64,000 nucleotides of DNA from Candidatus Omnitrophota bacterium. Lineage in GTDB: Bacteria; Omnitrophota; Omnitrophia; Omnitrophales; Aquincolibacteriaceae. The stretch is taken from contig JACKFM010000001.1 of the NCBI GenBank assembly GCA_020632475.1, forward strand, positions 272,125 to 336,124, read 5' to 3'. How positions within the stretch are numbered: the stretch's first letter is position 1; each line of letters opens with the position of its first letter. Positions 13,226-57,500 of this stretch are shown here, piece after piece. Below the pieces are notes generated by a model. It did no database searches and was not told the origin of the DNA. It saw only the letters and a list, made by a program, of their open reading frames with translations. The position numbers and the translations under genes are program-made.

Positions 13226-16200
13226 ATGCTTATGCAAAAAACAAAAAAACAATATCTGAAAATCATCGCGGTGTTAACAGCCGTTGTCTTTACATTGACA
13301 TCGCTTGAACTGCAGCCTTTGGCTCGAGCGATGCAGGTGGCTCCGGCGGCTGTTTCAGGTGAGATCTCCCCTCATTCTGTGTTTGAATTAAACCTTCCAC
13401 CGGAACTTGGCGTGATTCAAAACCTCATCAGCGGAGACCGTGGGGCCATTGTCCATTTACAGGCAGCGCATGGCAATTATGACGCACAGAAAAAAATTGA
13501 AAATATCCTGCACTATCTCAAAGATCAATACGGGATGAATCTTTTATTGGTTGAAGGAAGTGCGTTTAAACTTCGGCCTGAGAGAATTCGCTTTTTCCCC
13601 AAACAGATGAATTTGAATAGGGAGATTCTTGAGGGGTTAGCGCACAAGGCCCTGGTGAAGGGCGCCGAGCTTTTTCTGGCGGAGGATAAAGGAGCCGAAG
13701 CCTACGGGATTGAAAATCTTGAGACCTATAAAGCCGATGCCGAGGCCTTCCGGTCTGTTATGGAACACCGTGAACAAATCGAGAATTTCCTGAAACGTCT
13801 GCATCAGGACATTGAGGCACTTAAAGCGCAAACGCTCAACCCGGTTTTGAAAAATTTTTTACGTGAGGCCGAACGCTATTTTCAAAATACGACACTGCTT
13901 GGCGACCGGATTCATTGGCTGGCCGCTCAATCTAAAGATCAGCTGGAAATAGACTTTTCAAATGTGATTTACCAGATGGATTGGCCGATGCTTGTGCGTT
14001 ACTTCGCTTTAAAGACAGTTGAGGGAAAACTGGACTCAACTGCGTTTGAAAAAGAACGCGATGCGTTCCTGGCAGTATTGGTCGGGGACAGGGCCGAAGC
14101 CCTGCCTGCCGGACAGGCGGGCCTGTCCCCGTTGGTCACAAAACGAGTCACGACTCTGCTTACTGAACCTATATCCGAAAACCAACTGCCTGACCCCGAA
14201 ACCGGCCTTCTTTTTGAAAAAATGGCCGAAGCGCTGCCGTTGAATTTTGATTATGACGCTTATCCGAATGTGAAACTTTTTATCGGGCATTTGATTCTGC
14301 AAAGTGAGATCAAAGCCGCTCCTTTATATGCTGAAATCGACCGTCTTGAAAATCAAATTTTAGAGAAACTGATCCGTACCCCCGCTGAGCGTGAAGTTGT
14401 TGAGAAGATCAAACAGGCCAGACTGCTTGAAAAGCTTTTGCATCTTGAATTAATGCCTGAGGAATGGAAAAAACTGCAGACCGCAGACTTGGCGACGGGG
14501 AGAAAAGAGACGGGGCGACAGGGTGAAGGGGTGACGGGGAGTGAGTCTGTCATTCCAGCGGAAGCCGCGCCATCCGGCGGACAAGCAGGAATCCATAGTA
14601 CAACCGAGCCTTCGGCCTTCGACCTTCTGCCTTCCCTCTCTGCTGAGCGGCCGTCCGTTCAGTCCTCCCGCCACACAGAAGGCGGGCAGGCAGCCCTCAG
14701 CCCTCAGTCCTTTGATATCCCCGAAGACATGCAGACGATTTATCAAAACGCGTTGGAGTTTTACCGCCTGGCCGAAAAACGTGATGAAGCGATGCTTGAA
14801 AACATTGAGGCTAAGCTGGCTGAGACCGGAAAGAATAAAGCCGTCGTGATCACCGGAGGTTTTCACTCGCAGGCTTTTTTTGAGCATTTTCGTGAAAATG
14901 GATACAGCTACGCTTTGGTCTCACCCGAGATAAAAGAACTCAGCGGCCGTGAAGCGTATGTCGAGAGTATGCTGAAAAATTCGTCGGCCCACAGGCGACA
15001 AACCGCAGACGACGGACTTGCGACAGAGATTGCTTCGCCTACGGCTCGCAATGACGGTAGTCTAAGTATCATTCCTGCGCAAGCAGGAATCCACAGTACA
15101 ACCGAGACCTCTCGGCCCTCAGCCCTCAGCCCTCAGTCCTCTTTAGAGTCACTTTTCCTCGCCCTCTCGCGTCAGGAAATTGAACAATCCGGCGGCAACA
15201 CACGCTGGCTTTTTCAGCAGGTGCGTAATGAAATTAGAAATGTGCTTAAACGTCACGATTTGAAGGCTCTTGATCTGAAATCTGAGTTGAGGACGGATGC
15301 AACGGATGAATCCGCATCTGCAGCTGCTGCAGATACAGAGATGTTTGCGCCTGAAATTACATGGATCCGTCAAGCTTCAGGTGAACAGGGCGATCAGCCT
15401 TATCTGATTCGTCTAAGGCTTGAACAAAGCAAAGCTCTTTCGGGGGGTACCGGTTTTCAGAACCGTTACCTTGTTGAGGTGGCGGCGCTTGACCAAATGA
15501 TGGATATTGATACGGTTCAAAATAACCCTCGCCTTTATGCCGGAAGTATTTCCTTGACTTTTGACTGGCAGGGAAAGCTGATTAAGAACGAGCAGTTTAA
15601 TTTAATTTTTTTGATCGGAATCGACCTTATTTTTAACGAGATTTTGAAAAAAGATATTCAGCCTTTCATTTTGCAGAAACTCGAAAGCCTGACCGGAAAA
15701 GCTTTTAATGAGACCAATGCCGAACTGATTGATGGTGCGGCATCGTTTGATGATGTTTTGAGACATGACCGGCGCTTGTCGCCTGAGCGTGACTATAACG
15801 CATTAACCCCGGGACAATTCAGGAATACTTTTTATGCCGGTTATGAGAGCGGCCGTATTCAGCATGAGTCCATGTATGAGCAATGGAAAGCTACGGGTGG
15901 AACTGAAGGGGAAGATAAATTTCATATCGGTGGAATGATCATCCTGAGAAAAATAAATGGTAAATGGTCTTTTCTGCTCGGTCGCCGAAATAAAACCGGC
16001 AAACCTTTCTACCGTGACTATACCATTCCTGTCGGCAAGAAAGAATCCCGGATTGGCCTGGGCCTGGAATTTGACCGGTTTTTTAACCAGCGCAAGCTTG
16101 AAAAATTGAAAACGATAGGTCTTACGCTGCATGACGGTGAGATCATGGATCCCGTCGAGTTTATTGCTGAGGCCGCGTTGCGTGAAACGATTGAAGAAAC

Positions 16201-19200: not shown

Positions 19201-22200
19201 TCCGAACCTTCATCTTAAGGTAATTACTAAGCCGGGAGAGATTCAAGGTGCGTTGTCAGAAGCCGGTTTGATTTTTAAAACTCATGATAGTGAAAAGCTA
19301 TTTATTTCTGAACAAAAAATTCCTGAGGGAGTCAGAGTTCTTGAGGTGCCCTTAGCCGCTCAGCAAACCATAGAGTCGCTTTTGGATGACCGTATCCGGC
19401 CGGAAAAACTGAATGTTCATAACCCTTTGTCGCTCGGGCGTGTCAACCCTATCCGGCGTATTATCGCGGTTGAGGGAAGAGGTAAAACTCCGCCGCACCT
19501 GGTGGTGGAATTTTCAAGCCCTGCGGGCGGTTATTCCTCGAAATTTATCCGGTTGAATATTCTTCACGAATCGCTGCCTGAAAGCCCCCGGGAAGATGAG
19601 ATGACCGATGCTTTTATGAAACGTGTTTTTGAGTACAACTATGCCGTGTTGCAGGGCTTTGAAATTAACGGAACGGAGTCGGCAGAAGACCGAAAAAGAA
19701 TTATTGACGGATTAAAAGATTTGGCCGCTCAAGGATTGATTCTGGCCGAGACCCGTTATGAGTTAAAACATGATGAGGAACATATAGGGCGTTTTGCCGA
19801 TTTTACCGCCAGATCAGAAACGGAAGCAAAAGCCATTCGGGCTTTTTATCCGGCGATATACGCGAGGGACACCTTGGCCACTCACCGTATGAGATTGGCC
19901 CAAAAGCTGGGTTTTAATCTAGGAATGTATGGTCCGCAGACGGCGGCAATTTTTCTTAAGCGGGTTCATATGATTGATGTTCATCCGGAGCTGAGCATTC
20001 TTCGGGATGAAGCCGAATCGAAGGGGTTCTTTGCGCCGCTGATTGCCTTGAGTGTCGCCGCCGAAGATGATGGATCGATTTTATTGGGCGATGCGAATGC
20101 CGAAATAGATTCTTTTATGGCCAAGGTTTTGAATGTTATTGGAAAAGCCAGGCGGCCTTCAATTGATTTGGTCGGGCGGCTTGAAACCGTTGAAGCATTG
20201 ATTCAAACCAAAGCCGAATCGGATGCTGCCGGAACTGCCAATTCAAAAGCATGGATCATTGATACCGGTGATCCTGAGGAGGACAGAACGCTTGCCCGCG
20301 AAATTCGTTACATCTTCAGGCTGGAAGTTCTTTATCGCCTGACTTATGAAACATTTCACAGTGACAATCTTATCAGGGGAACTCATGCTGATGGTACGTC
20401 GATGCGTGTTAAGGTTTGGAATGCTCTTTCGCAGAAGGCAGAGCAGATATGGCACAGTGATACTACGTCAAGCCGCATCTGGATGCTTGCTCTAAATGTA
20501 AACAGAGATAAGTGGGAGTCGTTTGTGGCTGAGCAGTGGCCCGGCTTTTGGCAAATTTTTACCGAGCCTGAAACCGAGGATAATGGAGCTTTTCTTGCCC
20601 AAAATTCCGGTGTTATGGCGATTAATCAGCGCAGACTGCTTCCTGCGAGTTTGCCTGAGACGTTGGGTAAATTTTCAAAATTCACAGAAAGAGATATGCC
20701 TAGAGAAAAAACCGGTTTTGATATAACCGCAATTCCAAACAGAACAACATTAACGGCTGAGGAAATTAGGGCCGGGATAACCTTGAAAAAATTCCCGGCA
20801 CAAAAACTGAACGGGGGATTTGAAGCTATTTTGCAGAGTTTGAAGCGGTCTGGCATTGAAGATCTCGCCAGATTTAAACGCAAGGAATCCAGAAAGATGC
20901 AGGCTTTTCTTGATGACATCGTGGCTATCCGTGAACTTTATGAAGCCGGGCATTATGAAGAGGCTCTAAGAATTGTGAACCGCTACGTTGCCTTTCAGCC
21001 TCAGCCAGCCTCTGCAGCGGATGGGGCCGTGGTTAGCGGGGACAGGGCTGAAGCCCTGTCCCCGGATTCAACGGCAGCGGCAAGTACAGCCGCATTACTC
21101 ACCGGTACCGGCGATGAGGGTGCTCACATTGATTGGCGCGGGTACCTGCCCGAGGGGGATTTGATCGAACCTCCGGTTGATGGCGCGGCAGAGGCCTTAG
21201 GTGAGATGCAGACGCGTTTGATCGAAAAAGTTAAGCGGCGTTCAGGAGGAACCTCCGTGGTAACCATTCTTCACGACTTGGATCGTGCCGGACATATTGG
21301 ACAAACATTTAATGTCCTTATGGCCGCGCTTGCAAAAATTGCAGAGGGCCATGAGGATGACGACACTGCAGCGGCACGTGCGCTGGTGGATGAGATTAAA
21401 ATTTTAATCCCCAGGCAAATTAAATCAGGGGCCTCTGCAGACATTGATGCCTTTGAAGAAAAAACACATGAAATGTCAGATGACGATGCGCTTAATGAGC
21501 TTGAAGTCATAGAAACCGATTTTAGTCAGACGGTTGACGTTTTGAGAGGACCGGTGGCAGGAGAAATTTTTAGTGATCAGTTGGATGAAGGGACCCGGGC
21601 TTTTGAACAGAGCCTTGAGTATCTTGGTAAAGTCCGCCGTGTTTTGGAAAGTTCAATTGCAATGACCCATGATGCAGCTAATCATCCCGAAACTGTTCGC
21701 GGTCTTTTACAATCAAGCGCGGAACTTGCCGGTGAATTCAACGCTGAAAATCAATGGGGGATACGCCTCGGGTTCGCGAGGGCTGCTTATGCACGCCGTT
21801 TTACCGACGCGGCTCTTGCGGGTCAGACGCAAACACAGACCGCAGACTTGGAGACGGGGAGAGTTGGAGACGGGGAGACCCGCCAAAAAGAAGTCGGGCA
21901 AGCGGGGCGAGAGTCTGTTGGCGTCGATGCAGCGGAACCGACACTTCAAAAAAGCAGAAGACAGCTTTTGGCTGAAACACAGCCTGAAGTTTCCAAACAC
22001 GATCCGGAAAACCCGGATGAATTATGGACTTTTGTCCAAAGTGAAGGGTGTGAAGGGTGCATGATTGTGCAGTTCACACCCGGAGGCTGGCTTTACTCAA
22101 CTGAAAGTCAGGCACGTGTGCGCGAGGCTTTTAATAAAAATGATCAAACGCGGGCTAAAAAAAGAGATGCTGACACAGTGTCGAATGCTATGGCGGCATA

Positions 22201-34200: not shown

Positions 34201-37200
34201 ACCCGACCAGGTTGAAGAAACAAGTGTGCTCGGCGGCCGAATTGAGAAACTGGAGTTAATTTCCGAACTTTTGGACGATCAGCTCAATGCCGGTGTGCCC
34301 AGGCATGCCGAACTCCGTACGTTGACCTCCCTTAAGCGTTTGGATGATAAAGTCATTGAGATTTATGAAGCCCGCATGGCGGCACTTAAAGCCAAATCCC
34401 AAAAACATAGGATCTTTTTTGGAGTGATCGCACTGGCGATTGCAGCCCTTGCCGCTATTTCATGGCAGACAGCGATATTGCTTGCAGCCCCATACGTGAT
34501 TTATGAGCTTGCGCGCATTTTGTTTTTTGATCATACGACGGTTCGCTGGCCGGTTCTGGGTGCTTTTTTTCGGGCAATTCCTGCGCGCGAAATGCAATTT
34601 CCAGCCCTTCAGAGGTTGTATGCCGATCCCGTGCAGTATTGGAACCAACGCAGTGTTCGTCAACGCGCACAAAGAATTGCGGATGTTGCCGAACAACGCT
34701 TTAAAGACGAGGTGAAAATTGTCAGGACCGTCGAACATACGGCTGATTTTGCTGAAAATGCGGCGGATGTTCTAAAACTGGTCACGGGTCGTGGTGGGGA
34801 AATTCAGGCCGGAAAAGGATTTGATCAGCGTGTGTTCACCCGGTTCAAAAGGGTTTATGCGGTAGACGAGGATGCTGTTTTTATGCTGACTCGGGACGGC
34901 CGTTTTTATCTGATGCATAAACTTGAATCCGGGACCCAGGAGGCTTCCGGCCGCGTGCAGGCCATTTTTGAAGCCGAGAGTCTGGGCGCTGTGACAGTGC
35001 CCATTCAGGTATCCGGGCGTCTGATCCGGAAAACCGTTCAGCAGGGCAAACAACGCGTTGAAGAATCCGTCACTAAAATTGATGGAGTGCCGTACGCCTT
35101 TTATAAGATCGAGAATTATCCCGATTGGTTTTTTAATCCCGAAGTAACCCTTGAACAAAAACAAGCGATGCTTGTGCGTGAGCAGAGCCCAGACTTGGTG
35201 ACGGGGAGACCGGGAGATGGGGAGACAGGGAGAAAAGAGACGGGGCGACAGGGTGACGGGGTGAGTGAGTTTAAAAGTCAGCAGGTCGAAGGTCCGGAAA
35301 GTCCTCAAGTCCCAGTTGAGTCCGCTCAGTCCCCAGTCCCCAGTCCTCAGTCCTCTGAAGCAACTGAGCCCGCGCCACTGCTCCCGAGCGACGAGCAACC
35401 AGCGACGAGCGACATCAATCCAGCCGAGTTGGAAAATGTTTCCGCGGATACGAGCGATCAAACCGTGCAGCTTGTGCGGGATCATACGGCGTATGCGGCC
35501 GATTTAAGCGGAGAAAGTGCCGGCGCAGAGGAGTTAAGAGACGCGTTGGCACATCTGACGCATGCCGTGCAATTGGGTTTGAAATTATTGGAGGTTGCAG
35601 CGCAAGATGCAGATACGCGCGATCTGCTTTATATCGCCGGGCAGTTTAAGTCTCTGTCGGATGCACTTGAGCGTGCTTTTGAGATTCGCGGAAGGTATCG
35701 TGCCTTAGTTCCGGAAGCCGAAGAACCCAGTCTGGATGAAAATCCGCTGATTCTGATGACTGCAACTCTATGGGAAGATGAATTCATGAAATATTTACCG
35801 GTGCCGCAGGCAGCCCGGATTTTGGATGCCGCCGCGCGTATGGCCTCAGAAGAACAATATTCTGAATCGGATTTGGCCGACAGTTTGTGGGCCACAGCAC
35901 TTCAAACCCTGGATCGCGACTGGACTCTGGATCTGGGATTTGAACGTTTGATGTATCAAAAGCAGGAAGCCGTTCAGAAAGAAAAGGTTAAAACGGCTGA
36001 GGTGGATTCTGAAAACCCGGCGCTTAAAAAGCAATTAAGTGATTTCTATTCTGGAGTCGGGCGGTTAAGAAAAGGGACTCCTGATAATGAGGCCATTATT
36101 GCGGTCGCTCTCCAGATTTTTGAAGCGATCAGTGACTGGCCGGATGAATATTATCAGAGAAAGGACGTTCAGGGGATGTCGATTGCCATGAGTCAGCTGG
36201 CGGGAATCATGCGTGAGCATGACCTTTATGAGCGTGCGGTAGAACTCCTGAAGCTTTATGTTTCCAAAACTGAAAATCAGCCGAATGCGTTTATTCTTTT
36301 TCATCTGGGTGGAATTTACCGCCGTGCAGCCCATTTTGCCTGGAAGGCAAACGATAGAAAAACCAATATCCGCTATTTAGAACGATCACTTTTTTATTAT
36401 GCGCAAGGATTGCCGGGTGCCAATCCGGATGAAAAATTGGATCCGGTGCTTGAGGGGTTGGCCAATCAGGTCATTCCGACGTTACTTAAAGCCGCACGCG
36501 AAGGCCGTTTTGATTGGAAAATGCTTAATCCGACACTTCGGCAATTTGTGACTTCAATCCGTCTGCTGATGCGACGGCATGAATGGATTCCTCAAAGCCA
36601 TGGTCAGCTGCTTGCACTGGCTTTAAACAAGATTGTGTTGGATTGGAAAACCCAAGGCCTTTATCAGGCTGCACAATTATCCGCTGAGTTGGCCTATGCG
36701 CTTGATCCTGTCAATCCGTATGTTCTTTTTAATCTTGCCGACATTGCCGTGGCGCAGGGGCGTTTGGACAAAGCGCGTGAATATAGAGAAGAGATTGTCC
36801 GTCTGAATGAGACCGCAGTAACACCATTTGATCTAAGAGTGCTTAATAGCCTTATTCGGCAGGCCGAGCGCAAAGAGGACCGCACGGATAAGGTGTTTGC
36901 ACCTGCGCATCAGGTGGTTATGTCGACCAAGAGAAGACGTGTGTTGGAAACAAAACTTCGGACATTGCCGCAAACAGCCGCGGCAGAGATTGACGAAACC
37001 ACACCGGCCGAAACGGACTGGAATGCCCTGATTGCCCTTTTGGATGAGATTGAGGTCTTTCACCGCCGTGTACGGACCGGTGAGCTGGTTGATGGAGCAG
37101 TGTTTGAAGAACAGGAGCGCCTTCAGAATCAAATCGCCGGATATGAATTTGAAGAAATCGGAAGATTTTATGCATTATTGTATCTGGATTCCACCGATGA

Positions 37201-39994: not shown

Positions 39995-39995
39995 T

Positions 39996-40053: not shown

Positions 40054-40213
40054 GGTTTCATTGGCACCACGCAGTTCTCAAACTGGACAATGCGCGGTAC
40101 AAGTATCTCTAACAATTTTGAATCAATAACACATACTTTCAAAATTGAAGAGATACTAGCCGCGTAATATTTTTTGCTTTAAAAGTCTGCATCCCCTCAA
40201 TAAGATACTTTCC

Positions 40214-41056: not shown

Positions 41057-41081
41057 CAAGTTCTGTGAAAGTATATACAAT
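41053..41081 (+). promoter_or_regulatory. candidate sigma-70 promoter for the sugar-modification gene cluster
   Basis: -35 TTGACA (41053-41058, a perfect match), a 17-nt spacer, and -10 TACAAT (41076-41081). This is about 65 nt upstream of the epimerase ATG. It overlaps the first arm of a perfect 10-bp inverted repeat, gtatatacaa (41071-41080) / ttgtatatac (41101-41110). Confidence 0.45.
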
Positions 41082-41146
41082 TTCAAAATCAAGGCCTTGT
41101 TTGTATATACACAAGGGTCAATTTATTCTTATCGGGGGTATGATCC

Positions 41147-42565
41147 ATGAGTCAAAAACTGAAGACAAAATCCAAAAAACCCAAAATTCAGGGTAAGATC
41201 AAGACCGCTAAAAATTCAAAAGGCAACGAGAGTAAACTTATTTCGATCCGTATCCCTGAAAATGTCATTTCGAAATTGAGGGAAGTCGCCGGGAAAAAAG
41301 GCGATGGCGGATATCAGCATCTGATCAAAACTTATATTGCCAAAGGCCTCGTTAAGGAAGACGAACTTTCCGGAAATTTGATCAGCCAGGACACGGGCGC
41401 AAAAGAACCCGTTCCCGCCAAGAAAAAAGTCAAACCGATTTTAAAAGAAACCCTGAAGAAGATCGGAACGCCGGTACCGAAAACAGGGAAGAACGACCGC
41501 AGTAATGTGGCCCAACTGACCCAGTCGGATGTAATCGCCGAAGATATCCGGCAGCTGGCCAAGGCTCTGGAACCGTATTATTCCTTTTTTGCGGGGAAGA
41601 CGTTTTTGATTACCGGGGCTTTTGGTTTTCTGGGGCGTTACATTGTCAACTTATTAAAATATCTCAATGATGAAGTCCTTGAAGAAAAAACCAATGCCTT
41701 GCTTCTGGATAATTTTGTAACCGGCTATGAACAGCGCGTAATCCATGATAAGCATCTGCGTTTTCACCGTCACAATGTGATCGAGCCTTTTCAAACGGAT
41801 GAGGATGTTGACTACATCATTCATGCTGCCGGCATTGCCTCTCCGGCCTACTATACCAAGTTTCCGATTGAAACCATGGATGTCGGTACGATCGGTACAC
41901 GGAATATGCTGGAACTGGCTTATGAAAAGAATGTGAAGAGTTTTCTTTTTACGAGCTCAAGTGAAGTCTACGGTGACCCTGATCCAAAATTTGTACCGAC
42001 CCCCGAAGATTATTACGGCAATGTTTCGATTACCGGGCCGCGTTCCTGTTACGATGAGTCCAAGCGTTTTGGTGAAACGATGACGCTGGCTTACTGGCGC
42101 ACTTATGGCGTGCCGGTGAAAAATGTGCGGCCGTTTAATGTTTATGGTCCCGGTATCCGTCCGGATGATTTTCGTGTGCTGCCGAATTTTATTGAACATG
42201 CCCTGCGTAAGGAGCCGATTCCGATTCACGGTGAAGGCCGCAACACAAGATCGTTTTGCTACATCAACGATGCGATTGAAGCCATTTTTAGAATCCTTTT
42301 TTCCAATCATAACGGAGAAGCCTTTAATGTCGGCAATCCGTCCAACGAAATATCGGTCAAAGATCTGGCGCTGATGGTGGCACAAAGCATGCCCTATAAG
42401 ATTGATGTCGTACACATTGATCCGCCGCATGCGGTTTATGCCAGCTCGGATCCTAAGCGACGCTGCCCCGACATCTCTAAGTTGAAAAAATTGACCGGGT
42501 ATAAACCGCGTTACAGTCTTCAGGAAGGTATTTCCCGAACGATCCAATGGTTTTGCGAGTTTTGA
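41147..42565 (+). CDS. NAD-dependent epimerase/dehydratase (UDP-glucuronate decarboxylase-like extended SDR) with a roughly 150-aa lysine-rich N-terminal extension
   Basis: From about aa 150: KTFLITGAFGFLGRYIV (GxxGxxG), catalytic YDESK, and NVRPFNVYGPG. The N-terminal 150 aa are K-rich (MSQKLKTKSKKPKIQGKIKTAKNSKG...) and include a segment resembling ribbon-helix-helix/BrnA-like proteins (ISIRIPENVISKLREVAGKKGDGGYQHLIKTYIAKGL). No in-frame stop separates the two parts. Confidence 0.8.
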   Translation: MSQKLKTKSKKPKIQGKIKTAKNSKGNESKLISIRIPENVISKLREVAGKKGDGGYQHLIKTYIAKGLVKEDELSGNLISQDTGAKEPVPAKKKVKPILKETLKKIGTPVPKTGKNDRSNVAQLTQSDVIAEDIRQLAKALEPYYSFFAGKTFLITGAFGFLGRYIVNLLKYLNDEVLEEKTNALLLDNFVTGYEQRVIHDKHLRFHRHNVIEPFQTDEDVDYIIHAAGIASPAYYTKFPIETMDVGTIGTRNMLELAYEKNVKSFLFTSSSEVYGDPDPKFVPTPEDYYGNVSITGPRSCYDESKRFGETMTLAYWRTYGVPVKNVRPFNVYGPGIRPDDFRVLPNFIEHALRKEPIPIHGEGRNTRSFCYINDAIEAIFRILFSNHNGEAFNVGNPSNEISVKDLALMVAQSMPYKIDVVHIDPPHAVYASSDPKRRCPDISKLKKLTGYKPRYSLQEGISRTIQWFCEF

Positions 42566-42573
42566 CCCAAATA

Positions 42574-42599
42574 AGGGACAGGTCTTTAGACCTGTCCCT
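42574..42599 (+). terminator. perfect hairpin agggacaggtc-ttta-gacctgtccct after the epimerase gene (intergenic member of repeat family C)
   Basis: 11-bp perfect stem with a 4-nt loop, 9 nt after the stop. A second hairpin atccgcc-acaaagaa-ggcggat follows at 42621-42645 and matches the core of intragenic family A. Confidence 0.45.
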
Positions 42600-42710
42600 T
42601 AAAATGCGTAACTAAGGAAATCCGCCACAAAGAAGGCGGATTAAATTCGCACAAATCATTTATGCTTCTTTCGGTCGCATAAATGATGTGCTCATTTAAG
42701 GAGATTTCCC

Positions 42711-43133
42711 ATGGAATTAGAAACGATCCAGCATATTGATCCCGCATTTGTGGATGCCCGCGGTGAAATTCATAATCTTTTTGAAGGAACTCTTGGTCAT
42801 GTGGCGATGATTACTTCCAAAAAGGGAACCGTGCGTGCCAATCACTATCATAAAAAAGACCTCCAATATATTTATCTGGTCAGCGGCGCTTATGAAGCCC
42901 ACAGCTGTCCTATCGATGATCCTTCCAATAAACAGGTGCTTCAGGTGAAACCCGGCGATATCGTTAAGACTCCGCCGCTTGTCGCGCATGCTCAGAAGTT
43001 CACCGAAGACTCGGTGTTTCTGGCTTTTACGACATTGCAGCGCGAAGACGGGAAGTATGAAGAAGATACCCTTGCTTTCCCGGTCATTGAAGGCGCTTAT
43101 CTGAACAAAAACCTGACACAGGCCAAAGCGTAA
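42711..43133 (+). CDS. WxcM/FdtA-like cupin (putative sugar 3,4-ketoisomerase)
   Basis: 140-aa cupin fold with the VRANHYHKK...Q.IYLVSG pattern typical of the FdtA/WxcM C-terminal domain. Assigned from size, motifs and sugar-pathway context. Confidence 0.55.
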   Translation: MELETIQHIDPAFVDARGEIHNLFEGTLGHVAMITSKKGTVRANHYHKKDLQYIYLVSGAYEAHSCPIDDPSNKQVLQVKPGDIVKTPPLVAHAQKFTEDSVFLAFTTLQREDGKYEEDTLAFPVIEGAYLNKNLTQAKA

Positions 43134-43147
43134 AGTAATCGGACAGT

Positions 43148-43879: not shown

Positions 43880-43880
43880 C

Positions 43881-43938
43881 AGGACTGAGGACTAAGCGTA
43901 GAGGACTGAGTCCTCAGTGCTCATAGCTCAGTCCTTTG
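43881..43938. repeat. intergenic cluster of inverted ctcagtcct units (family B in reverse orientation), likely terminator
   Basis: aggactgaggactaagcgtagaggactgagtcctcagtgctcatagctcagtcctttgag. ggactgag (43903-43910) pairs with ctcagtcc (43927-43934), followed by ttt. The same 9-mer in forward orientation is tiled through both giant ORFs. Confidence 0.5.
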
Positions 43939-43954
43939 AGTTAAGGAGAGATGA

Positions 43955-45244: not shown

Positions 45245-45529
45245 GAGGGCGTGAGGGCCTCTCCCACCGTTTTTTCGATCTTGTTGAAAATAAAGGAGTT
45301 AGGCCATGATTTGGCGCTAGCATGAACTAGCATTCAAGGCTATCTTACTGCTTTCTATAGCTTCGGATTTGTAAGAGCTACCTCTCCGTGTTACCTTTTA
45401 TAAAGGTTAGAAATAGCAAGGGGTTAGATCGGTTTAACCGGTCTAAAAAGCAGTTTTGGAAAGGGCTGTATTCTTTCTATATCTAATGTAGAAACACCGA
45501 CAAAAAATACTTAACAATAATCATTTCAC

Positions 45530-48500
45530 ATGAAGCATCCTTTTTTCAATTTTAAACGTTTTATTGCGATCACCGTTGCTCTGTGCATGGTGTTGACCGA
45601 CCGTTCGGCAGTTTCCTATGCGCAGGCGGCGTCTGCCCAGTTTGCTTCAGAGGCTCAAGCCGTAAATACCAAACTGGCCTCAGCTCAATTCGTTCTGCCT
45701 GGCTTTAATCTTCCTTCCGAGCTGGGCTTCATCGAGGAAGTCTATAGCGCACCGCGTGAAAAAGAGCAACCGTCTCCCTCGGCCCTCAGTCCTCAGCCCT
45801 CAGTCCTGCCGTCGAAGACGGTGATTTATATCCAGGATGCCCATGACTCGCTTGAAGCTCAGGAGCATATTGCTGAAATGATCCGTCTTTTCGTGCATGA
45901 CAACGGTATCAAGACGGTCCTTGAAGAGGGGTATGATGGGAAAGTTCCGACGGATGAGTATTTCGGATCAATTAAAGACCCGGAGATTAAAGAAGAAGTT
46001 TCCTACTTTTTGATGGATAAGCTTCGGATCGGCGGTGCGGAGTACACCCACATCAATCGCCAAGAGGATTTTAAGCTGATCGGTGCGGACAGCATTGAGC
46101 TGCACCGCGAAAACGTCAAAGCCTACCAGAAAAATTCAGTTTATCTCAAACAGGTTCAAAAAGATCTGAAGGAAATGTTTGAACGGATTGAAAGGATGGC
46201 GAATGTCCATTTTTCAAAAGAACTCAAGCAATGGATGAAAAACAAGAAACGATACGATGCCGGACAGCTTGATCTTTTAAGCTATCTTAAGCGGACAGCC
46301 GGCCTCTTAGGCGATTCTGCTTTGCCGTATCCGAATATTCTCGTGCTGCTTTCGGCTGAAGAAACCAAAAATGCCCGGGCGATTGAAAAGGCCAAGGAGA
46401 TCCATAGTGCGCAGTTATTTGAGGAAATAGGAGAATTTGAAAATAGTGTGGCTGAAAAGTTTTTAACCCATGATCGTGACCGGGATATTTTTAAATATTA
46501 TAAAGCCTTGAGTCTTATGCTGCGTTTAAGCGACATTGAAGTAACCCCTGAGGAATACGAGGCCGCCAAAGGCACCCTTAAAAATTTCGATACCCGCAGG
46601 ATGGCCGAATTTATCGTGGCGGATACCAAGCATACCGCTGTACTTTCGACCGAATGGGAAGACAAGATTAAAAATGCCATCCGTTTTTATGAGATTGCGC
46701 ATCAGCGCGATGACAGTATTGAAAAGCATCTGGAAGACTTTTTAGCTTCCGACCAGCAGACGGCTGTCCTTGTTTTTGGAGGTTTTCACCGAGATAAAAT
46801 TCAGGCCATTATGCGTGCAAAGGGGATCTCGTTCGTTACTTTACAACCCGCAATCAGTTCGGTCAGCCAAACCCACCAGGAATATTATAAACAGTTGATG
46901 TCTTCCGGTTATCTTGATTTTGAAAAAACACTTCATCTGGATTCGGAGCAAGGTTTTTCCGGATCAAATATCCCACTGCCGCAAGCCTCCCGCATGTCCA
47001 GGACACTTCTGGTCTGGGATGTCCCGGGCTATGGACGGGTTGTCGAGGGGTTGGCGGAGACGGCACGCGTTTTGAAAAATCGAAAGCCGGATATGGATCG
47101 CCCTCTTTTACTGCGTCAGATGGCCAGGGGACTTCAGGCGCGCAGTAGCGCCTTTGAACAGGAAACTGTTCCGGGACACGCGGAATTGCGTAATCAGGAA
47201 GCCTCTCCGCAAAACGAACCTCCCGAATCTTCCGTTAGACTTCGGATGGATGAGCCTCAGGGGTTTGCGGCGCCGCGTATACGCGGGCATTTACAGGCCT
47301 ATGAACGCCGTCTCAGAGCGCAGGCCTTAAGAAGAAAATTGGCTGAACTGGGACTTCTTTTTACGGCCGTTGCACTTGCGGTTACCGCGGTTATATGGAG
47401 TGTTGTGGATGCAGAGACTGAAATCCGTGCCACGGATGTTATTTGGATGACGATTGGTGCTTTTGCTGCAAGCGTATGGGTGTTGTACCGTTTTCTTTCA
47501 GAACGTGATTTTAGAATCAGTAGTGAACAGGAGCGGATTAATTTTGAACGCATTCTCAATGGAACCAAAGACGGAGAAAGTGTGATTCGTTCCGTTGAAA
47601 TGCTTGAGGCCTATGCCCAATCACCCGATCGGTCACAGAGAAGCGATATTATCCGCTCGGCTGAAAGGGTTAAAGATGAGATTCTTGAGCGGAATCCATT
47701 ATTGACGATTGTCGATCAGGAAAAGATTACCGAAGGTGATAAGATCGTCATTTTTGAAATTCCCGGTACCGGACATGAAGGGCTTGGGATTAAAGAGATG
47801 AATGCTTTATTTGGAGAGCTTTTAACGGATAACTTTCTGGCTGAAGTTAAAAAGAGCCTTTATGCAATGGTCCGTGCATCTGCCTCAGTAAGAGGAATTT
47901 CAATCACGCCGCTTTATTCTACCCATAAAGAGCATGCCTTTGTCGTCAGAGGAGATGTTTCACAGGATTTTTTGCGAAATGAAATCCAGAAAAAACTCGT
48001 TGAGGCCATGAATCGGATTCTGCTCACATCCGATGACCTCCCGTACCGCCGGATCATCGAAGAGAAGAAGCTTGATCAAAACGGGGAGGATTTATTTGAA
48101 ATTCATTTTGGAATGAGCCGCGTTGAAGAAGATTCCGAAGAGGGGAGGCTGACGGCCAATATTCGCGCTAAACAGGCTTTGCTGATTTCCAGATACCGGA
48201 ACGTCTGGGACAATAACCGTGATCCGGATCTGGTTTTATATTCCCATGAGAATTACGCTGCCGTGGTTGATGAGTTGGCGAGCATCCGTCGCCGGCTTTT
48301 AGCCAATGAAGGGGCGGCTCTGTTTGCCACGGGTGAAAATGAAGCGTTTGGGCAATATTTCTTTTTAAGACCGGGGGCAGCCAATATCCTGAGAAAAAAA
48401 GTTGAATGGGGCGAGCTGTCGACGGAAGAAAAGAAAGTTTTTCATCATGTCGAAATTTACCAGCTTGCACAACGATACTTTGAACTCCTGAATCTGCAGG

Positions 48501-51500
48501 ATGTAATTAAAAAATGGCAGATGGATGAGGCGGAGGCCTTTCGTGAAATCAGAGAAATTCGCGGCATTCTTGAAACACTGGATTTTCTAGTGGATCTTCT
48601 CGTGAGCGGAGCACAGGGACGCGTCCGTCCTGAAGAAATGCCTCTGGATGTGATTGGGCAGCAACGGCTCGGCCTTTTGCGCAAATATGCTTTAAATGAT
48701 GCGCGCAACCGTAAAGCCTATTCGCAAAATGTATTTCATGCGAAGGCGGCTGAGATGGCTAATCCTGTCATTGTCGGTTTAGATGTGATCGGAATGGGGC
48801 CCATGAATTATGAGGCCTTTGACGGCGAATTGCAGCAGATCGACAAGCAATTGAAATCCGGAAATCCCGTGACCGATGCAGAGGTTCAGGCGATTCAAAG
48901 ACAGGCGGCCGACTCGGTGACGCTCAGGCGTGACCATATCCTGGATGAAATCCGTGATCAATTACAGGAAACCTACCGTGAAGTTAATCTGACACCACCG
49001 GGTGAGTTGATTGCACGCATTGGCGGAGATGAAGTGGTCTTTGTGGGAGATAGTTCGGTTTTGCACGGGGCTGTGCTGGACCGGTTTCTAACCGGATTGC
49101 GTGAGAGGATTCGCTCGAATCTGGGTATTCATGTGCGCATTGCGGCTGATTCTTTGATCCAGGACTACCGCCGGCGTTTCACTCGGACAACGCGTTCGGA
49201 TCCGAAGATGATGGCCCATGCCCGGGCGCTCAGTCTTCAGGACACGAATGTCAATCATGTCCTCAAGCCGATGGAGAAGAAAGGCTTAACCGGAGAGTTG
49301 CATGGCCACGGCGGGGCGATCGTTGTGCGTGCCAAACGCTGGGGCTTGAACCGCTGGAACCGCGTCGTGGAAACCGATCAGGGTACGACCCGTATCGATG
49401 CCGAAGCGGAAATTATTTTAAGCAACTGGCATTTTAACCCGGGATTACTCACCACCAGGCGTACGGAACTGAGATCTTCTGCCAATGATTCTGAGGTCTA
49501 TCCGCAGCCGGTTGAATTTTTCACTCATCCATGGACACTTCAAGAAAGATGGCCGTTTGCGCCCAGTGCCTTACTGCGTTTTCCGGGCCAGTTGACCGCG
49601 CTAAAACGCAGCGTATTTCCGGCGCTTTTAAAAAGACAGGGCGATTCGAAAAAACTGAAAATGTCTTTTCTGGCGACCAACACCGGAGAGGAAATCGCCG
49701 GATATCTTTATGCCTTGTCATTAGCCTATGACGCGCATACCGAATGGGGACAGGCTGGAAAACTCGATCTTTCGATCGTCGCCAATGATTTGCACGCGGA
49801 TATTCTTGAAGAAGCCCAAAGGCGTCTTTCCGGAAAATCTCCTTTTGTTTTCAATGGCGATTTTATCGGCGGTGATCAGGAAGCGGAAATGACCATTTAT
49901 GAGCCGCTGCTCCGGCCGCTGCCGTCGTCGTTTGAACCCTTTCTTCGGGCAATTAATCCGATTAAATCTCGGATTCAAAAGTCTTTTTCTTTTATTTCCG
50001 GCAGTATGTTCCGCAGTTTTCGTCTGTTTAAGGCGATCGTCGGTTCGGACATTATTGTTTTAAATGCAGCGCCGATCCCTTCCTGGAAACCTCTCCTGTG
50101 GCTGTTCGGAAAAATATTAACACGCGGCGAAAGACCTCCCGTAATCATTACCACCAATCGGCAATTAGCCGAGGGTCTTTCCGGATATCAGGTGCTTGGA
50201 TTACGCGATCTGGGGTGGGCTGGTTCTTATCTTGCGATTCCTAAATGGCTGCAAGAGGATTTTGATATCGAGCCGTTAACTTCGATGATTTTGAATCGTG
50301 CAGAGTTGCGGGCTGCGAGCGATCAGACATTAAGGCAGCAGTTGTTAGGTGAACTGCATTCAGAACCGGATGCCCAAAACCCTGTTCTGCAGACCTTGTT
50401 TATGTTTGATGCTTTGAAGAGAGTGGTTCAGGGGGAACCTTCAGCGCGAAATCCTGTGTTTCAATTGAGATCCGATGATATTTTAAAAGCCATTTTGGGA
50501 AACCGTAAAGCCATTGAGGTTTTTGAAAATCCGGTAACTCAGGAGAATTTAAAACGTCTGGAAGGTTTGCCTTATCTTTATCGCCTGGCCGTCAACGGAA
50601 TTGCCACCGAGCCCGAGCATTACGGGCGCCTTTTTATCCGGGCAGGGGAATCCCGTCTGGCGCCTGAGGAATCCTTTCGTCAGGCACTTGAAATGGGCTT
50701 GAAAACTGTCAGCAGTGGGACGCCTCAGGAGATCCGGGATGAAAAACTGAAGAAGGTTAAAAGATTTCTGGATTATCACTTTTTGAAAGTTTTTCTGCGT
50801 TATTGGAACCGTGAATATGCCCCGTCGCTGCCGACCATGCTTGAAGGGGTTATCCCGGACACCGTGAAAAGAAATCAAATGCTGATGGCCAATATTACCC
50901 ATTTAAGCGGTGCGGTTTTGCAGGCTGTCTATGACGTTAATCATGAATATTTAAGTGCCCAGTACGGTGAGCCCGATTCAACCGGCAGTATTGTTCTGGC
51001 CGGTGCCAATGCCCGCGGCGAATATCCTACTTTTGATTATGATGCCGTAGTTCTTTATGAAAAAGACGGCCGCACTCCCGGAGGCCCCAGCGGGACTCTC
51101 TCCCATGCTGAATTTTATAACCGGCTTGCGGTATTAATCCGCCAAAGTTTTGAAGGCGATCCTCAATCGGGGTATGCGGGGATGGGCCGTGAAATGGACA
51201 GCCGGTATCAATATACAATTTTTAAATCATTTCTGAACGCTTGGGGTGTTGAAGAAAACCGGCCGATGTGGGCAGTGAGCATTAACCGTGCCGAGGCAGC
51301 GCTTAAAAGTTCTCAGCCGGTTGGTTTGATCCTTAGCTTTCTGGATCTTATGCCCGGTGCCGGTGACATGGACCTAGCCGAACGTTTTATCCAAAGCACG
51401 CAGGAATATCTCGCGGATGAAAAACATCTGTATACGGGCATGGCACAGACGCTGAGTGCCTATCAGTTTATGCGGCAAAAGACGGCAGAGACATCCCCGG

Positions 51501-54500
51501 TGCTGGATATCAAAGGCACTGCAGGCGGGCTGCGATCATTCCATTATTTTTTATGGTTTTTGCGCCTTTACCGCCGTTTGCTCTTTATGCGTGCCGGGCA
51601 ACCCAGGGCAGCTCAAAAACCCGCTTCCGGTTTGAATTTTCTGGATAATCTGACCGTGTTAGAACGGGAATTTTCCGGGACCTCTGTGCGTAATGAGTTG
51701 ACCGCTTATTATCTTTATTTGATCAATTTACGACTGACCATGGATCTTTTTTATGCGCGCAATAGCAAACAGCTTCCGACGGATTCTTTGGCCCTGGCTT
51801 ATTTTGCCTTTTACAATGCAACCCTTTATCGTCTGGCCGAAGGCGCCTCTCCTCTCGGTTTTGATCCTGCGCAAGCGCTGCCTCTTCAAGAAGAGTTTTT
51901 GAGGCAGTTGAAGCAGGTGATGACACGGATTGATGGTTTAATCGACGGTTTGATGAATGACCTTCTGTCCGGAAATTTTGATCAGGTCAATATGCATTTG
52001 TCCCAATGGCAGTCCTCACCGGAGTTAATTGATGCAGCGGATCTTCGGCAAACTGCTGCAAGTCTGGTGGAGACAAGCCGGGAGGAACTGGATCAGGCCG
52101 CTCAGAAGCATGTGGAGCAACTGGTTGAAGATCGCACAGGGCTATCTCCTCAAAAAATGATTATTTTTGTAACTGCTTTTTTGATGAGGACGCGGAACAT
52201 GACACAAGTTGCGGCGGAAAGAAGCGCTCTCTGGTATTCTGAGAACAGGCCTCGGGAGTTTGAACGAATGGCCCATAAAGAGGAAAAACATCGTAAAGCA
52301 GAATTGAGGAATGATACCGAGACTCTGGCTGGGGTGCGCGGTGAGATCGAACGTTGGGATGTCAATTACATCGTAAAGAAAAAACATTTTGGTCTGCAGC
52401 TTGGAAGGCGTTTGAATATGGCTTCGGGGCCCGGCAGCGTGCTTGAATTTGATTTTCTGAAACGCATGATGCGTTTAATGCTTCCGGAAGCGGAAGGCAT
52501 TTCTGCCGCCACACCTCCGGGCGGTACAATGCCGGATTATGTCAGGTCTCAAGAAGAGTTTGAACAAATGCTTGACGTTTTGGAACAGACGGGGATCTTA
52601 AAAGAGCCTGTCATCCCTCGCGGCGAATTTGAAACCGAATCGCAGCGGTTGATGCGTGCCAATAAAACATTAGCCGAAAATTTTGATTTTTTCAGCCGGA
52701 ATCACCTGCACGATATGACGCTGACCGATGACCGCAACCCGTTAGTCCGGGATTACAAAACACGTATACCGGAACATTATTTGCAATCCGAAAGAGCTTT
52801 TCAAACCGTGATTCCGCTGGTGCTGCTGATGTATGAAAGACGCTTTCCCGGAGAGGTTGAGACACAAACGCTCAAAGATCTGGATGATCATTTTGTTTTA
52901 CAAAAAAAGAAAACACTTCACTTTGACTGGGAACGCGGATTTTTCGAAGGGGAAAGTGAAGTGGTTGCCCTGAAGCCTTCAGAAGGTGCTGCTGTTCAGT
53001 TCTTTGCCGTTCACCCCGAATTAACTTTTAAAGCCTTTGAGTATGGAGTGCCGGATGTCAATATTCTTGAGGGCCTCAGGCTTAACCGGGATGCTTTTGA
53101 AAAGTGGATCCATTTACAGCGCGCCTCTCCGTCCGGTGTGGGCAGTGCAGGCTTTCAAGTGCTTGTGCAATCTTTTGTGCACCTCTTAGGAAAAGCTTCG
53201 GGTGATCAGCATGCCTTTTCGAAAACAATCTGGTATTTACACCGGTTTGGGCTATTAAATGCGTATATTCGTGAATATGAACCCGGAAAAATCGGCAATC
53301 TGATCGCTGATCCCGCTGTGCATGAGTTTACCACCGATCAGCACAGCCTTTATCATTTTGAAGTTCTGGATAAAATCGGTCCTGATGATCCGGCCGCGTT
53401 TAGTCTGATCCGTGATTTTTATTTAAAAATTGAGAATTCCCCTGAAGACTCCCATGAGCGAAAACTGCTGGCGGCATTGCGATTAAGCGTTTTTTTACAC
53501 GACTCCGCCAAGAGTTTCTTTTTTGCCGGTTCGGCCGATCATGCCATTCAGGCTGCACAAAATGCGGTTCCCCGTTATCTCAAAGAAATGGGCTTTGACG
53601 ATGAGACAATTGAAACCACCGCCTGGGTTGTTCGCAATCACATGGTTTTAAACAGCTATGCCTACAGGCGGCTTGTTGATCATCCCGAAGAAATCAGTGA
53701 TGCGGTGGAACGCATGGTCTGGGATCCCGGGATTACTCCCGAACGTTTGAGGCTGCTTTATCTCATATCCCTTTCGGATTATTTCTCGCTGCAGCCTCTC
53801 AAGGATTATCCTTCTTTAAATCCGCATTTTGAGTTGGGGTTACGGGTTCTTCCGGATGCCGAGTCTGAAGGGAAGTGGACTTCGCTGGAACGTATGCATC
53901 AGCTTTACCAGGCACTTGCCTCGATTGTAGGCGAGACGGATCCGGTTTCAAGAGAAGATAATATGGCTCGTATCCGCGCGTTAAGAACAAACGAAATGCA
54001 GAGTTTCTGGAACCGCTTTTTTGCCGAAACCGCTTCCCAGGTTCTAGAGCACCTGACCGAGGATGCTCTTTATGAGCGGTATTTAGCCGCGGCCCGGAAA
54101 GGGACGGGCGAAGTCCGGGAAAATGAAATCCGGAGGAATGCCGCCTATACTGTGGAGCATCTTTATCAGGACTATTTTTCTGAAATTTTGGATGATGGGG
54201 CCCGCACCCCCGAAATCCAGGCAGAGGTGCAACGAAGGGCTTCTTCAGAATTTGCACAGCTTTTTTATCGGGGCTACATTCAGTCTTTTGATGAAGGCTA
54301 TTTGAAAAATCTGACGCTTCAAGAACATCTTCGGAGGTATCTTTTCACCGTTCATTTGGATGTCCTGCGCAAGCGCGGTTATAAAAAACCCATCATTCTA
54401 TTTAATCCCGGTTTTGATAATGTTTCAGAACGTCAGCATGAGTTCATTATCGGGTTGACGACCGATGAACGAGGCGTTTTTGAAGATGTCACCGGGGTGC

Positions 54501-57500
54501 TGGCCTTGCATGAAGTAGATGTGCAGGGAGCCCGTTTTGTGCGCACCGGATCAGGGCTTATTGTTGACCGCATTTTTGGGTTCCGCCGTAACGGTGATGC
54601 CGAGATCGATACCCTGCGCCAGCGCATCTGGACAGATCTGGGCCGTATTTTTACGGATTACAACCGGCAGGACCATGCGGTTGAAATCTTTTACCGTGAA
54701 AAGGAAAAACCCTATCAATCCGTCCGTCCGCCGACACGGTTAAAACAGGATACTCACATACAGTGGTTTCATGACCGCAATACCGACGGTGAGGAGACCT
54801 CTGTTTTTACGGTTAAAACCACAGACCGGCCTGCGCTCCTTCATGTCATCGGCCGTATTTTGAATACCCGGGGTTATAGTGTGATTAAAGCACCGATCAC
54901 CACCTATGAGCCGTTTACCGACAATACGTTTTATATCAATAAAGACGGGACTTTTTTAAGTGATGCCGAAAAAGAAGCGCTTGAAAAACTGTTGGTTTCT
55001 ATCCTTGATCAACCCATCATCAACATTGCGGATATTAAAGGGGACAGGTCTTCAGCCCTGTCCCCTGACCAGGTACCTCCCAGCGCAGCTAATGACGCCG
55101 CGTCTGGACATTCCGAGTTACGAATTACCATGCATTCCGATGAGGCGGAGGTTGCGGCATGGATGGATGAGCTTGCAGCGGAGATTACAGATGCCGGTGA
55201 TCGTAAAGCCGCCGAGGCGTTTATTACTGTTTTTAGACAAAATCCCGAACTTGACCGTAGCGAAATATCCTATGAAGGCTGGCATCAGTTCGTTGGTGTT
55301 TCACGCGATGATGCCGGTACAAGCTATGCCCATATTCTTCTGGATGCCGCTGTTCATTTTCCGCGCAAATTAATCCGTGCCGCACTGGTGCATGAGGGAA
55401 CGCACATTTTGAATAAGGATCTGCAGGATGCGCAGCTTGCAGCCTTTTTAGCGGCACAACAAGAATGGGCTGCAATGACGGCCCGGGGCGGAGCTCAAAC
55501 GCAAGACGATGTGGACGTTCTTTTGGAACCGCTTGCAGACTCCATGGCGCTAACGATGGAAGACGAGTGGCGGGCCTATCAGGCCGGTGACCGTGTATTC
55601 TTGTCATCTCTTGACGGGTCGGTCGATGATTTTATTCAGGCACTGCCTCAGCCGGATGCACACGCCCCAAGAGTTGATCAGGCGAGGTATCTGATGATTC
55701 GTGGGTTGGTAGAAGATATTCGGGTGCGGTCAACGCAGCTCGAGACTTATGAACTTAAGACTAAAGCCACTGCTTTGCAGGGAATTCTTTCGATTGATAA
55801 CCTTTTAGCCTTAAACCAGGGATCGCGGGCAGAGCTGATCAATCTTTTTCTGATCATTGTGGCAACTAACGGCGAAGGCGCGAGGTATGTGACCTGGGAT
55901 CAAAGTCGTGAATATCTTCATCAGACGACCATTACTGATATTCAGGGTCTGACCCGATGGCTGCTTTCTCAGCCGCGTGCTCAGCAGATCGGTCAACTCA
56001 TCGCCCATTACACCAGGACGGAGTCGAGAGCTTATCTCAGTGATTCTGATTTTGTGACCCATGAAGCCATTGAAGAAAGCGGATATGGTCAGGAGCTGCG
56101 CCGTAAATTCACATCTGCTTTTGACCGGATTATGGCAGCAAGTGTTCCAGCGGCGTCGCAGGATCTGCATACCGGAATTAAGGCGGTACTTTATACCGCC
56201 TATGATAAAGCCCCTCAGATTTTCCTAAGCATTGATCCGAACATGGAAGCCCGGGCAGCACATGTCATTTATCTTTCTTCGGAAAGACAATTGATTCTGA
56301 AATTTCCATCGGTGGAAAAAGCGCGCGAAGCAGATGAGAATTTTCTGATCGGTGCGATCCTCTATGCTGCCGGCGTGCCGAGGACAGGGCATCCGTGGAA
56401 TATATGGACGTTTAATCCGAGGATTCGTGACAATACCTATAATATTCCAGCCGCAGGCGTTACTTACCGTGTGACAAACGATCTTTTGAATTCTCTTCAG
56501 CAGGTGATTGCTCAAAACATCCCGTCGGCTGCAGTGGGAACCTCAGCGTCGCCGGCTCCAAGGAGGAGATGGCAATTTCGCCGTGTAGCACCCAATGAGC
56601 GTGTGGACGTTCCTCCCCGTCAGAGGAGCGGCAGCCCTTTGCCAGCAGCTGTTCCACCGCGAGAATCTCCGGATGAAATTGAGGAAATCCGGTTTGTTAA
56701 TTTTCGGGGCAATGAGAATTGGCAGCAAAACGCTGAGAAAGTCATCCGTGAAGCATTCCGAGCCATTGCAAGAACGCCAACTGAGAGTTTGAGTGATCAG
56801 CGTCTTCAGGGTGTGCTTCAATTCATTCATGAGATGATGGAAATCCGCGGGACATCCAGTCATGTGGTTTTAGCGGTTGAACCGAATCTCACCGGTGTTG
56901 CCGGTGAGGTGGCTTCGCTCGGACGTCTCCCGGCTTTTTTTAGGATCATGCTTGATCGTGACGGTCAAAATAACGGGCAGAAGCGGTTCGCCCGCGGGCC
57001 AAGAGGGAATTTGTTTGATCAGAAGGTTTTTATTATGCATCTTCGAAAATGGCAGGTGCTTGCCTCAGCTGACGGCACTCCTGCAAATGACGTTCAAATT
57101 TATGACGGCATCAATGTCAGACAGAGCATTGCCACTCGCCCAGGAGAACAAATTATTAAGTTCGACCGTGATTTTCTGATCAAGGCCATGGTTCACTCTT
57201 TGCTGGATCAACAGCATTCCTATCCCTGGATCATGGCTGAAAAATATCCCCAGATTCAGTTTAATTCGGATACGAATGCGATTGTCCTTCCCGGAACAAG
57301 GCGGGTTTTTGTCCCGACACCGAGTGAAATCGTTCAAATCGTTGAACACATCATTCAATTTGCTAATCTTCACCCCGAATTGCGCGTGAGCAACGCAGAA
57401 GAGCTGATTGCCTATGCTCGTGATCATAGGGCCGCACCTGCCGAAAATGTGACGGATTTAGCGAATAAAATTGTGCGACTTGGTCTTGGATTTAGCGCGA

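Follow-up and report, generated by a model that had tools for sequence, protein, structure and literature searches.

What kind of sequence can appear both as a hairpin at the ends of genes and, translated in frame, as a stretch of protein inside two giant open reading frames (ORFs)? This question is raised by a 64-kb stretch of a Candidatus Omnitrophota bacterium (contig JACKFM010000001.1, positions 272,125 to 336,124; hereafter the window, i.e. the whole of the DNA that was analysed), in which a GC-rich hairpin, here called family C, occurs in five copies spread over 50 kb. Two of the five copies lie just 3' of genes and three lie in frame within two giant genes. The original prediction, made from the letters of the window, was that one structural element serves as a hairpin at gene ends and is also translated within each of the two giant ORFs, and all five of the hairpins on which it was based are present. 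We consider it probable that family C belongs to the repetitive extragenic palindrome (REP) type, i.e. to the small palindromes, rich in GC, that are dispersed over a genome; it is 26 nt long with a stem of 11-13 bp and a loop of 2-4 nt, and giant genes would tolerate it in frame in their linkers.

The 26-nt unit has the consensus GGGGACAGG-NC-NNNN-GN-CCTGTCCCC. Its stem is 10-13 bp long and its loop has 4 nt, or 2 nt when a T-A pair closes it; the core hexamers vary among the copies (CTGAAG, CTTCAG, CTTTAG and CTTAAG). The intervals first proposed were exact for 14084-14130 and 42574-42599, whereas the one given as 21027-21056 lay about 10 nt too far to the left and those given as 5407-5435 and 55038-55066 had to be trimmed at their ends. 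The copies, the direct repeat around one of them and the two host ORFs are as follows.

5409-5434, no strand assigned: family C hairpin GGGGGCAGGAC-TTAA-GTCCTGTCCCC; the 5' arm encodes the last residues (GGRT) of a VanY-like protein, and the stop codon TAA (5421-5423) lies in the loop.
13226-39994, plus strand: giant ORF1, 8922 amino acids, with NUDIX and TPR repeats; host of two family C copies.
14078-14083, plus strand: left TTGGTC of a 6-nt direct repeat around the compound copy, read from the sequence.
14084-14130, plus strand: family C compound copy, two decayed head-to-tail copies whose outer arms pair; encodes GDRAEALPAGQAGLSP in frame in giant ORF1.
14132-14137, plus strand: right TTGGTC of the same 6-nt direct repeat, likewise read from the sequence.
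21038-21063, plus strand: family C perfect copy GGGGACAGGGC-TGAA-GCCCTGTCCCC, with a 12-bp stem that includes a flanking C/G pair; encodes GDRAEALSP in ORF1.
42574-42599, no strand assigned: family C intergenic perfect copy AGGGACAGGTC-TTTA-GACCTGTCCCT, with a 13-bp stem spanning 42572-42601.
45530-61735, plus strand: giant ORF2, 5401 amino acids, with a GlnD-like region and an N-terminal region paralogous to that of ORF1; host of one family C copy.
55040-55065, minus strand: family C copy GGGGACAGGTC-TTCA-GCCCTGTCCCC; encodes GDRSSALSP in giant ORF2.

Family C is a real DNA element present in several copies, whose nucleotide sequence is conserved in either orientation. The 8-mer arm (GGGACAGG / CCTGTCCC) occurs 10 times in the window against an expectation of 1.46, a number that none of 100 shuffles reached, and the pattern of the whole hairpin, at three mismatches or fewer, is matched five times against an expectation of 0.13. 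When the window was scanned with the 20 specified positions of the consensus, the five copies scored 17-20 matches, and nothing else in the window reached 14 of 20, so that decayed relics are absent. The window has 21 perfect hairpins whose stem is 8 bp or longer, and the three longest stems (13, 12 and 10 bp) all belong to family C. The predicted RNA folding energies of the copies are -20 to -36 kcal/mol, with z-scores of -2.9 to -7.8; no Rfam family matched anywhere in the window. The copies at 5409 and 42574 were also recovered, 100% identical to the window, in contigs assembled independently from three sequencing runs (Logan), and are therefore not assembly artefacts.

The two giant ORFs together make up 67% of the window and have a sparse Pfam content, as is typical for the giant genes of Omnitrophota (preprint 10.1101/2023.11.21.568195). 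The peptides encoded by their three family C copies are GDRAEALSP-like, as had been claimed, and fit the pattern GDR..(A)LSP. All three in-frame copies start at codon position 1 and have the codons GGG GAC AGG ... CTG TCC CC in common. The copy at 55040 differs by 1 nt from the reverse complement of the copy at 21038 and by 3 nt from that copy in direct orientation, so the difference between AEA and SSA in the two peptides comes from the flipping of the DNA element and not from selection at the protein level. In addition, none of 150 homologous giant proteins (P0121-P0270; 436,385 amino acids) contains a family C peptide in any of the three frames. The strand flip, the absence of the peptides from the homologues and the status of two copies as insertions show that it is the DNA that is conserved and not the peptide.

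That status rests on comparison with homologous proteins. For the domain made up of the N-terminal 420 amino acids of ORF1, 6746 homologues were detectable, with a top identity of 48%; many of these are giant proteins. In an alignment of 25 of these homologues most have a compact loop, FLxxIxx-IPxx-IYxQIExLLSSPLS, at the point where ORF1 adds VGDRAEALPAGQAGLSP, and the DWPML-LPDPET loop is 69 amino acids long in ORF1 as against a mode of 57 (16 of 53 homologues). These comparisons show that the 14084 copy is an insertion, and the loop of the conserved N-terminal domain in which it lies is hypervariable. In the translation this copy has the duplicated codons LV ... LV on its two sides, matching the TTGGTC direct repeat, which may be a target-site duplication. 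For the copy at 55040, local BLAST against the 150 giant homologues gave one informative match, P0177, which reads ...FIVFSDLR-AS-RHELR where ORF2 reads ...INIADIK-GDRSSALSPDQVPPSAANDAASG-HSELR; a word-index homologue search around this copy gave nothing. In this alignment the 55040 copy opens a lineage-specific insertion of 23 amino acids, which lies in the inter-domain linker between an ACT-like domain and the HSELR boundary motif. The third copy, at 21038, lies in an Ala/Ser/Thr/Gly-rich stretch of ORF1, and neither the word-index search nor local BLAST against the 150 giant homologues found any homologue of the 800 amino acids around it. The term coding insertions, which had been applied to all three intragenic copies, is thus upheld by comparison with homologues for two of them (14084 and 55040). 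The in-frame copies add 9-16 codons in loops or linkers of the two giant ORFs. It had also been suggested that they cause transcriptional pausing or attenuation; this found no support, all three being placed in linkers or loops as tolerated insertions would be.

The copy at 5409 overlaps the end of the VanY-like gene, with its arm coding for the final four residues and the hairpin supplying the stop codon; the homologues of the VanY-like protein have variable tails in the C-terminal part, after a conserved EPWHW motif. The copy at 42574 begins 9 nt past the stop codon that closes an epimerase ORF (41147-42565), and a co-directional ORF follows it at 42711. Both intergenic copies are therefore at the 3' ends of genes, each with a co-directional gene next. 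Calling them terminator-like was apt insofar as they are gene-end hairpins. However, neither is followed by a T tract (the downstream sequences are GTAAAGG and TAAAATG), so they are not canonical intrinsic terminators, and the 42574 copy was not called in a terminator scan of the window. The 145-nt intergenic region after the epimerase gene (42566-42710) contains three successive perfect hairpins, i.e. family C at 42572-42601, AATCCGCC...GGCGGATT at 42619-42642 and ATCATTTATGC...GCATAAATGAT at 42655-42687.

These properties invite comparison with several known systems. Rickettsia palindromic elements (RPE), which Ogata and colleagues reportedly described in 2000, are said to be selfish DNA inserted in frame into protein-coding genes. 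RPE-1 is about 100-150 bp long and has a more complex palindromic structure. Family C resembles the RPEs in that its copies are found in intergenic DNA as well as in frame within genes, where they add a peptide at tolerated positions and leave the ORF intact, and in that the in-frame insertions at 14084 and 55040 are absent from homologues; it differs from them in being only 26 nt long, in adding 9 codons and in belonging to another phylum. The small dispersed repeats (SDR) of Nostoc punctiforme, as reportedly described by Elhai and colleagues in 2008, are 21-27 nt long and have hairpin potential. By this description, family C is like them in being very small and dispersed, in its hairpin potential, and in that some copies lie in other repeats or in coding regions. 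Intrinsic terminators have in common with family C a GC-rich hairpin right after a stop codon and, in some other organisms, a core between A and T runs, but the window copies are without a T tract and three of them lie inside intact ORFs of 16-27 kb. Two further candidates were rejected from reading the sequence: a LexA box, as the half-sites are in the wrong order (ACAG-N10-CTGT), and a restriction site in the core, as the cores differ among copies.

The closest resemblance is to REPs. According to the survey of Di Nocera, De Gregorio and Rocco (2013, PMC3733652), REPs are 20-40 bp long with stems of 6-13 bp and, in many families, loops of 2-3 nt; most are near the 3' end of the upstream ORF, some provide stop codons, and REPs wholly within ORFs are most numerous in Opitutus terrae, a member, like Omnitrophota, of the PVC superphylum. 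Family C shares with them its size, a GC-rich stem of the 6-13 bp class and a very short loop, its place between co-directional genes on the 3' side of the upstream ORF, the occasional supply of a stop codon and the occasional in-frame occurrence inside ORFs. The same survey, which also mentions the Rickettsia RPEs, does not contain the family C arms in its searchable text or supplements. A literature search with the sequence strings of the element returned only eukaryotic primer sequences, and two preprints on the giant genes of Omnitrophota make no mention of palindromes or hairpins. Family C is the first such family for Omnitrophota in the literature searched, and its host genes are among the largest known bacterial genes, although the biology itself is already known in other phyla in the form of in-frame REP and RPE insertions, of stop codons supplied by REPs and of the Nostoc SDRs.

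The core of family C also occurs outside the window. An 18-base pattern matched at least 119 stretches in a species-representative genome collection, in many phyla, and a pattern with 22 specified bases had at least 125 matches in JGI metagenomes, with lineage-specific flanks, where the chance expectation was estimated at less than 1. Among the 121 genome matches listed, 31 had a T..A loop (TAAA, TGAA, TTCA, TTTA or TTAA) against about 8 expected, and these are the same loops as in the window copies. The core is multi-copy with flanks of its own in an Aminicenantes-like group, in a termite-gut Oscillospiraceae metagenome-assembled genome (MAG), in a lineage in metagenome Ga0310810 and in an actinobacterial MAG, where it is flanked by GTA...TAC; such flanks are found in several lineages (e.g. 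L111, L116, L029 and L006). In Comamonadaceae it is a single conserved hairpin at a syntenic locus, and in some other organisms (e.g. at loci L164, L168, L188, L219 and L223) the core has A and T runs on either side, like bidirectional intrinsic terminators. Only 7 of the 125 metagenomic matches listed have 100 or more codons of open frame to either side, so elsewhere the element is essentially intergenic; the candidate intragenic copies in other organisms use all three reading frames. The sharing of the core across organisms could reflect descent, horizontal spread or convergence on a favourable hairpin.

Two side observations concern these occurrences. The 55040 copy recurs as an identical 26-mer, internal mismatch included, at a conserved syntenic intergenic position in four Comamonadaceae-type loci (L105, L186, L204 and L218), with the flanks gaatgaattg | core | cgctgatcaagt. 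The same 26-mer is present at a Rhodoferax locus (L037) with other flanks and outside the synteny clusters.

If family C is a REP-type repeat, its copies would have spread at the DNA level. The most plausible route would be that an HUH/RAYT-type or similar enzyme, with its gene at another place in the genome, acted in trans on copies folded as single-strand hairpins; only copies that did no harm would have survived. Downstream of genes, the hairpin in the transcript may shield the 3' end of the mRNA or reduce read-through. In giant genes, copies would persist only in frame, free of stop codons and in disordered linkers, and the giant genes, at two thirds of the window, would be unusually tolerant targets. 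Three of five copies in the giant ORFs is what would be expected of unselective placement, as these ORFs are 67% of the window. Several observations nevertheless weigh against a mobile REP-type repeat. The window copies are without a GTAG (or GTGG) or CGTC tag, and the five flanks share none; moreover, family C consists of four singletons and one head-to-tail dimer and not of inverted (REPIN-like) dimers. Because the tag and the inverted-dimer arrangement are both missing, we call family C REP-like and do not count it as a member of the tagged super-families. No RAYT, IS200-type or other transposase gene is among the ORFs of the window, and all-against-all clustering of 7127 ORFs from 239 core-carrying loci of other organisms revealed no transposase-like family recurring beside the core; an associated transposase was rejected as a candidate, the only families obtained being of housekeeping type (histidine kinases, ABC ATPases, a PutA-like proline-utilisation enzyme, peptide release factor 2 and similar). 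A direct repeat flanks only the copy at 14084 and none of the other four. The copy number of family C is known for the 64-kb window alone, and the other assemblies found of the source organism are all identical to the window and thus uninformative about presence/absence polymorphism. Finally, in viral contigs the family C arms had 8 matches, as compared with 2, 8 and 2 for three composition-matched controls with shuffled arms. As controls are about as frequent, the sharing of arms across lineages is not by itself evidence of common descent; the idea that the arm sequence is special was rejected on these grounds, and no homology across phyla is claimed.

The same features could be explained in other ways. 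The hairpins might be independently selected RNA structures, i.e. terminators or 3' stabilisers at gene ends and pause or attenuation sites within ORFs, whose similarity comes from a shared recognition factor. The abutting of two copies on gene ends, the A and T runs around the core in some organisms (e.g. at the loci named above), the single conserved syntenic locus in Comamonadaceae and the high predicted stability of the hairpins would all fit such an origin. We nevertheless think it unlikely, as the window copies have no T tract and the 42574 copy was missed by the terminator scan, a pause site would not require nucleotide identity in both orientations, two of the in-ORF copies are recent, being absent from homologues and placed in loops or linkers that tolerate anything, and the presence of three of the five copies in the giant ORFs already fits the share of the window that these occupy. 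Another route to the five copies would be a local one that involves no transposase, for instance through slippage, through template switching or mutations that perfect a hairpin, or through gene conversion among GC-rich palindromes that were already there. Slippage could produce the tandem duplication at 14084 with its 6-nt direct repeat, and the untagged state of the window copies and the lack of a transposase gene, both in the window and beside the core elsewhere, are in keeping with such a route; but the copies, which stand in unrelated contexts and as much as 50 kb from one another, all match the consensus at 17-20 of its 20 positions, there are no intermediates, and the core is multi-copy in several unrelated lineages, which makes a purely local origin quite improbable in our view.

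A protein-level explanation would take GDRxxALSP to be a genuine short motif of giant proteins and the intergenic hairpins to be coincidental or derived from coding sequence. The use of one reading frame by all three intragenic copies might be read in this way, but we rejected the shared frame as a sign of protein-level selection, since three copies would fall in one frame by chance with a probability of about 1/9 to 1/4 and the candidate intragenic copies elsewhere use all three frames. The motif is also missing from the 150 homologous giant proteins, the arm codons are identical in the three copies with a central difference that is a strand flip, and the intergenic copies share the nucleotides and not the peptide (the one at 5409 ends the VanY-like protein as GGRT and the one at 42574 lies past a stop codon). 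We therefore regard a genuine protein motif as very improbable indeed.

Returning to family C as a REP-like repeat, homologues of the giant genes show that its insertion at 14084 has parallels. Other homologues carry different extra segments at the same loop of the N-terminal domain, and in the three whose DNA was examined these are palindromic. P0182 (locus L145, 1083-1144) has a REP dimer, GTAG-GGGCGCAAT-TT-ATTGCGCCC, an 11-nt spacer and GGGCGTGAT-GA-ATCACGCCC-CTAC, with the GTAG tags outermost; P0131 has one GTAG-tagged hairpin; and P0121 has a palindromic element of about 100 nt that resembles a miniature inverted-repeat transposable element. These elements show that Omnitrophota carry classical tagged REPs and that in-frame insertion of palindromes into giant genes recurs in the phylum.

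The loop itself, at 14000-14200 in the window (amino acids 262-338 of ORF1), is a hot spot of in-frame insertion. Its counterparts are L145 1083-1144, L147 1359-1427 and L148 1512-1631, and the palindromic repeats there are unrelated among lineages; further homologues have translated inverted repeats at the hot spot, e.g. EYGVRS...HRTPY.

A more far-reaching possibility is that the core, in the form GGGGACAGG-KC-TRAA-GM-CCTGTCCCC, is a single micro-element common to many bacteria, or the target of a single widespread DNA- or RNA-handling system, and has spread over many bacterial phyla and groups (Omnitrophota, Aminicenantes, Chloroflexi, Brocadiales, Actinobacteria and termite-gut Clostridia). 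In Omnitrophota it would then be one of several palindromes for which the same permissive loops and linkers of giant genes are recurrent sites of in-frame insertion. This is speculative and we hold it to be unlikely; if it were true, the insertion of repeats would systematically lengthen and diversify the linkers of the largest proteins known from bacteria.

If family C is a tolerated repeat, part of the 'dark' low-complexity linker of giant proteins would be inserted repeat, i.e. translated selfish DNA, and not evolved protein. Such repeat-derived linkers would matter for annotation, domain parsing and structure prediction. The copies also mark sites that tolerate insertion: one is the loop of the conserved N-terminal domain that is hypervariable, and others are the linkers that directly precede R-S-E-x-R boundary motifs.

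The boundary motifs are numerous in the homologues. The pattern R-[S/A]-E-[L/V/A/M/I/T]-R occurs 793 times in the 150 giant proteins, as compared with a mean of 10.1 in shuffled sequences, at a median spacing of 234 amino acids. A motif of this type stands at a domain boundary in the single alignment examined (ORF2 against P0177). Its positions in the window are amino acid 3195 of ORF2 (HSELR, at about 55112-55126) and amino acid 686 of ORF1 (at about 15281), and the looser pattern [SA]E[LVAMI]R is found 8 times in ORF1 and 5 times in ORF2, fewer than in homologues. The giant-gene preprint states that the cleavage points in Omnitrophota giant proteins are unknown, and R-S-E-x-R-type motifs are candidate cleavage or linker sites.

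Further repeats were noted in the two ORFs. From GEGVTGSESVIPAEAAPSGGQAGIHSTTEPS onward ORF1 has about 38 amino acids that its paralogue ORF2 does not (window about 14500-14720, amino acids 425-500 of ORF1), and most homologues match the N-terminal region of ORF1 as two separate stretches. A near-identical G/A-rich segment of about 40 nt, GGGAGAAAAGAGACGGGGCGACAGGGTGA..., is present in ORF1 in two copies 21 kb apart, at about 14495-14550 and 35225-35280. The hairpin ATTCCTGC-gcaa-GCAGGAAT at 15071-15090 in ORF1 encodes IPAQAGIH. The peptide (S/A)(A/V)LSPQS recurs in ORF1 (14693, 15122, 17018, 28451, 35342 and 39188) and in ORF2 (45782); it may come from heptamer repeats of the CAGTCCT/CCCCAGT type, seen at about 35333, and would then be a separate repeat family translated into linker.

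Finally, at L145 (245-3411; Logan ERR3281021, Omnitrophota) the ORF for the N-terminal part of the giant gene ends at 388 amino acids. Next to it come an ORF of 134 amino acids that matches 23S_rRNA_IVP/bAvd and, beyond this, one of more than 686 amino acids; the insertion of a cassette may have split this giant gene.

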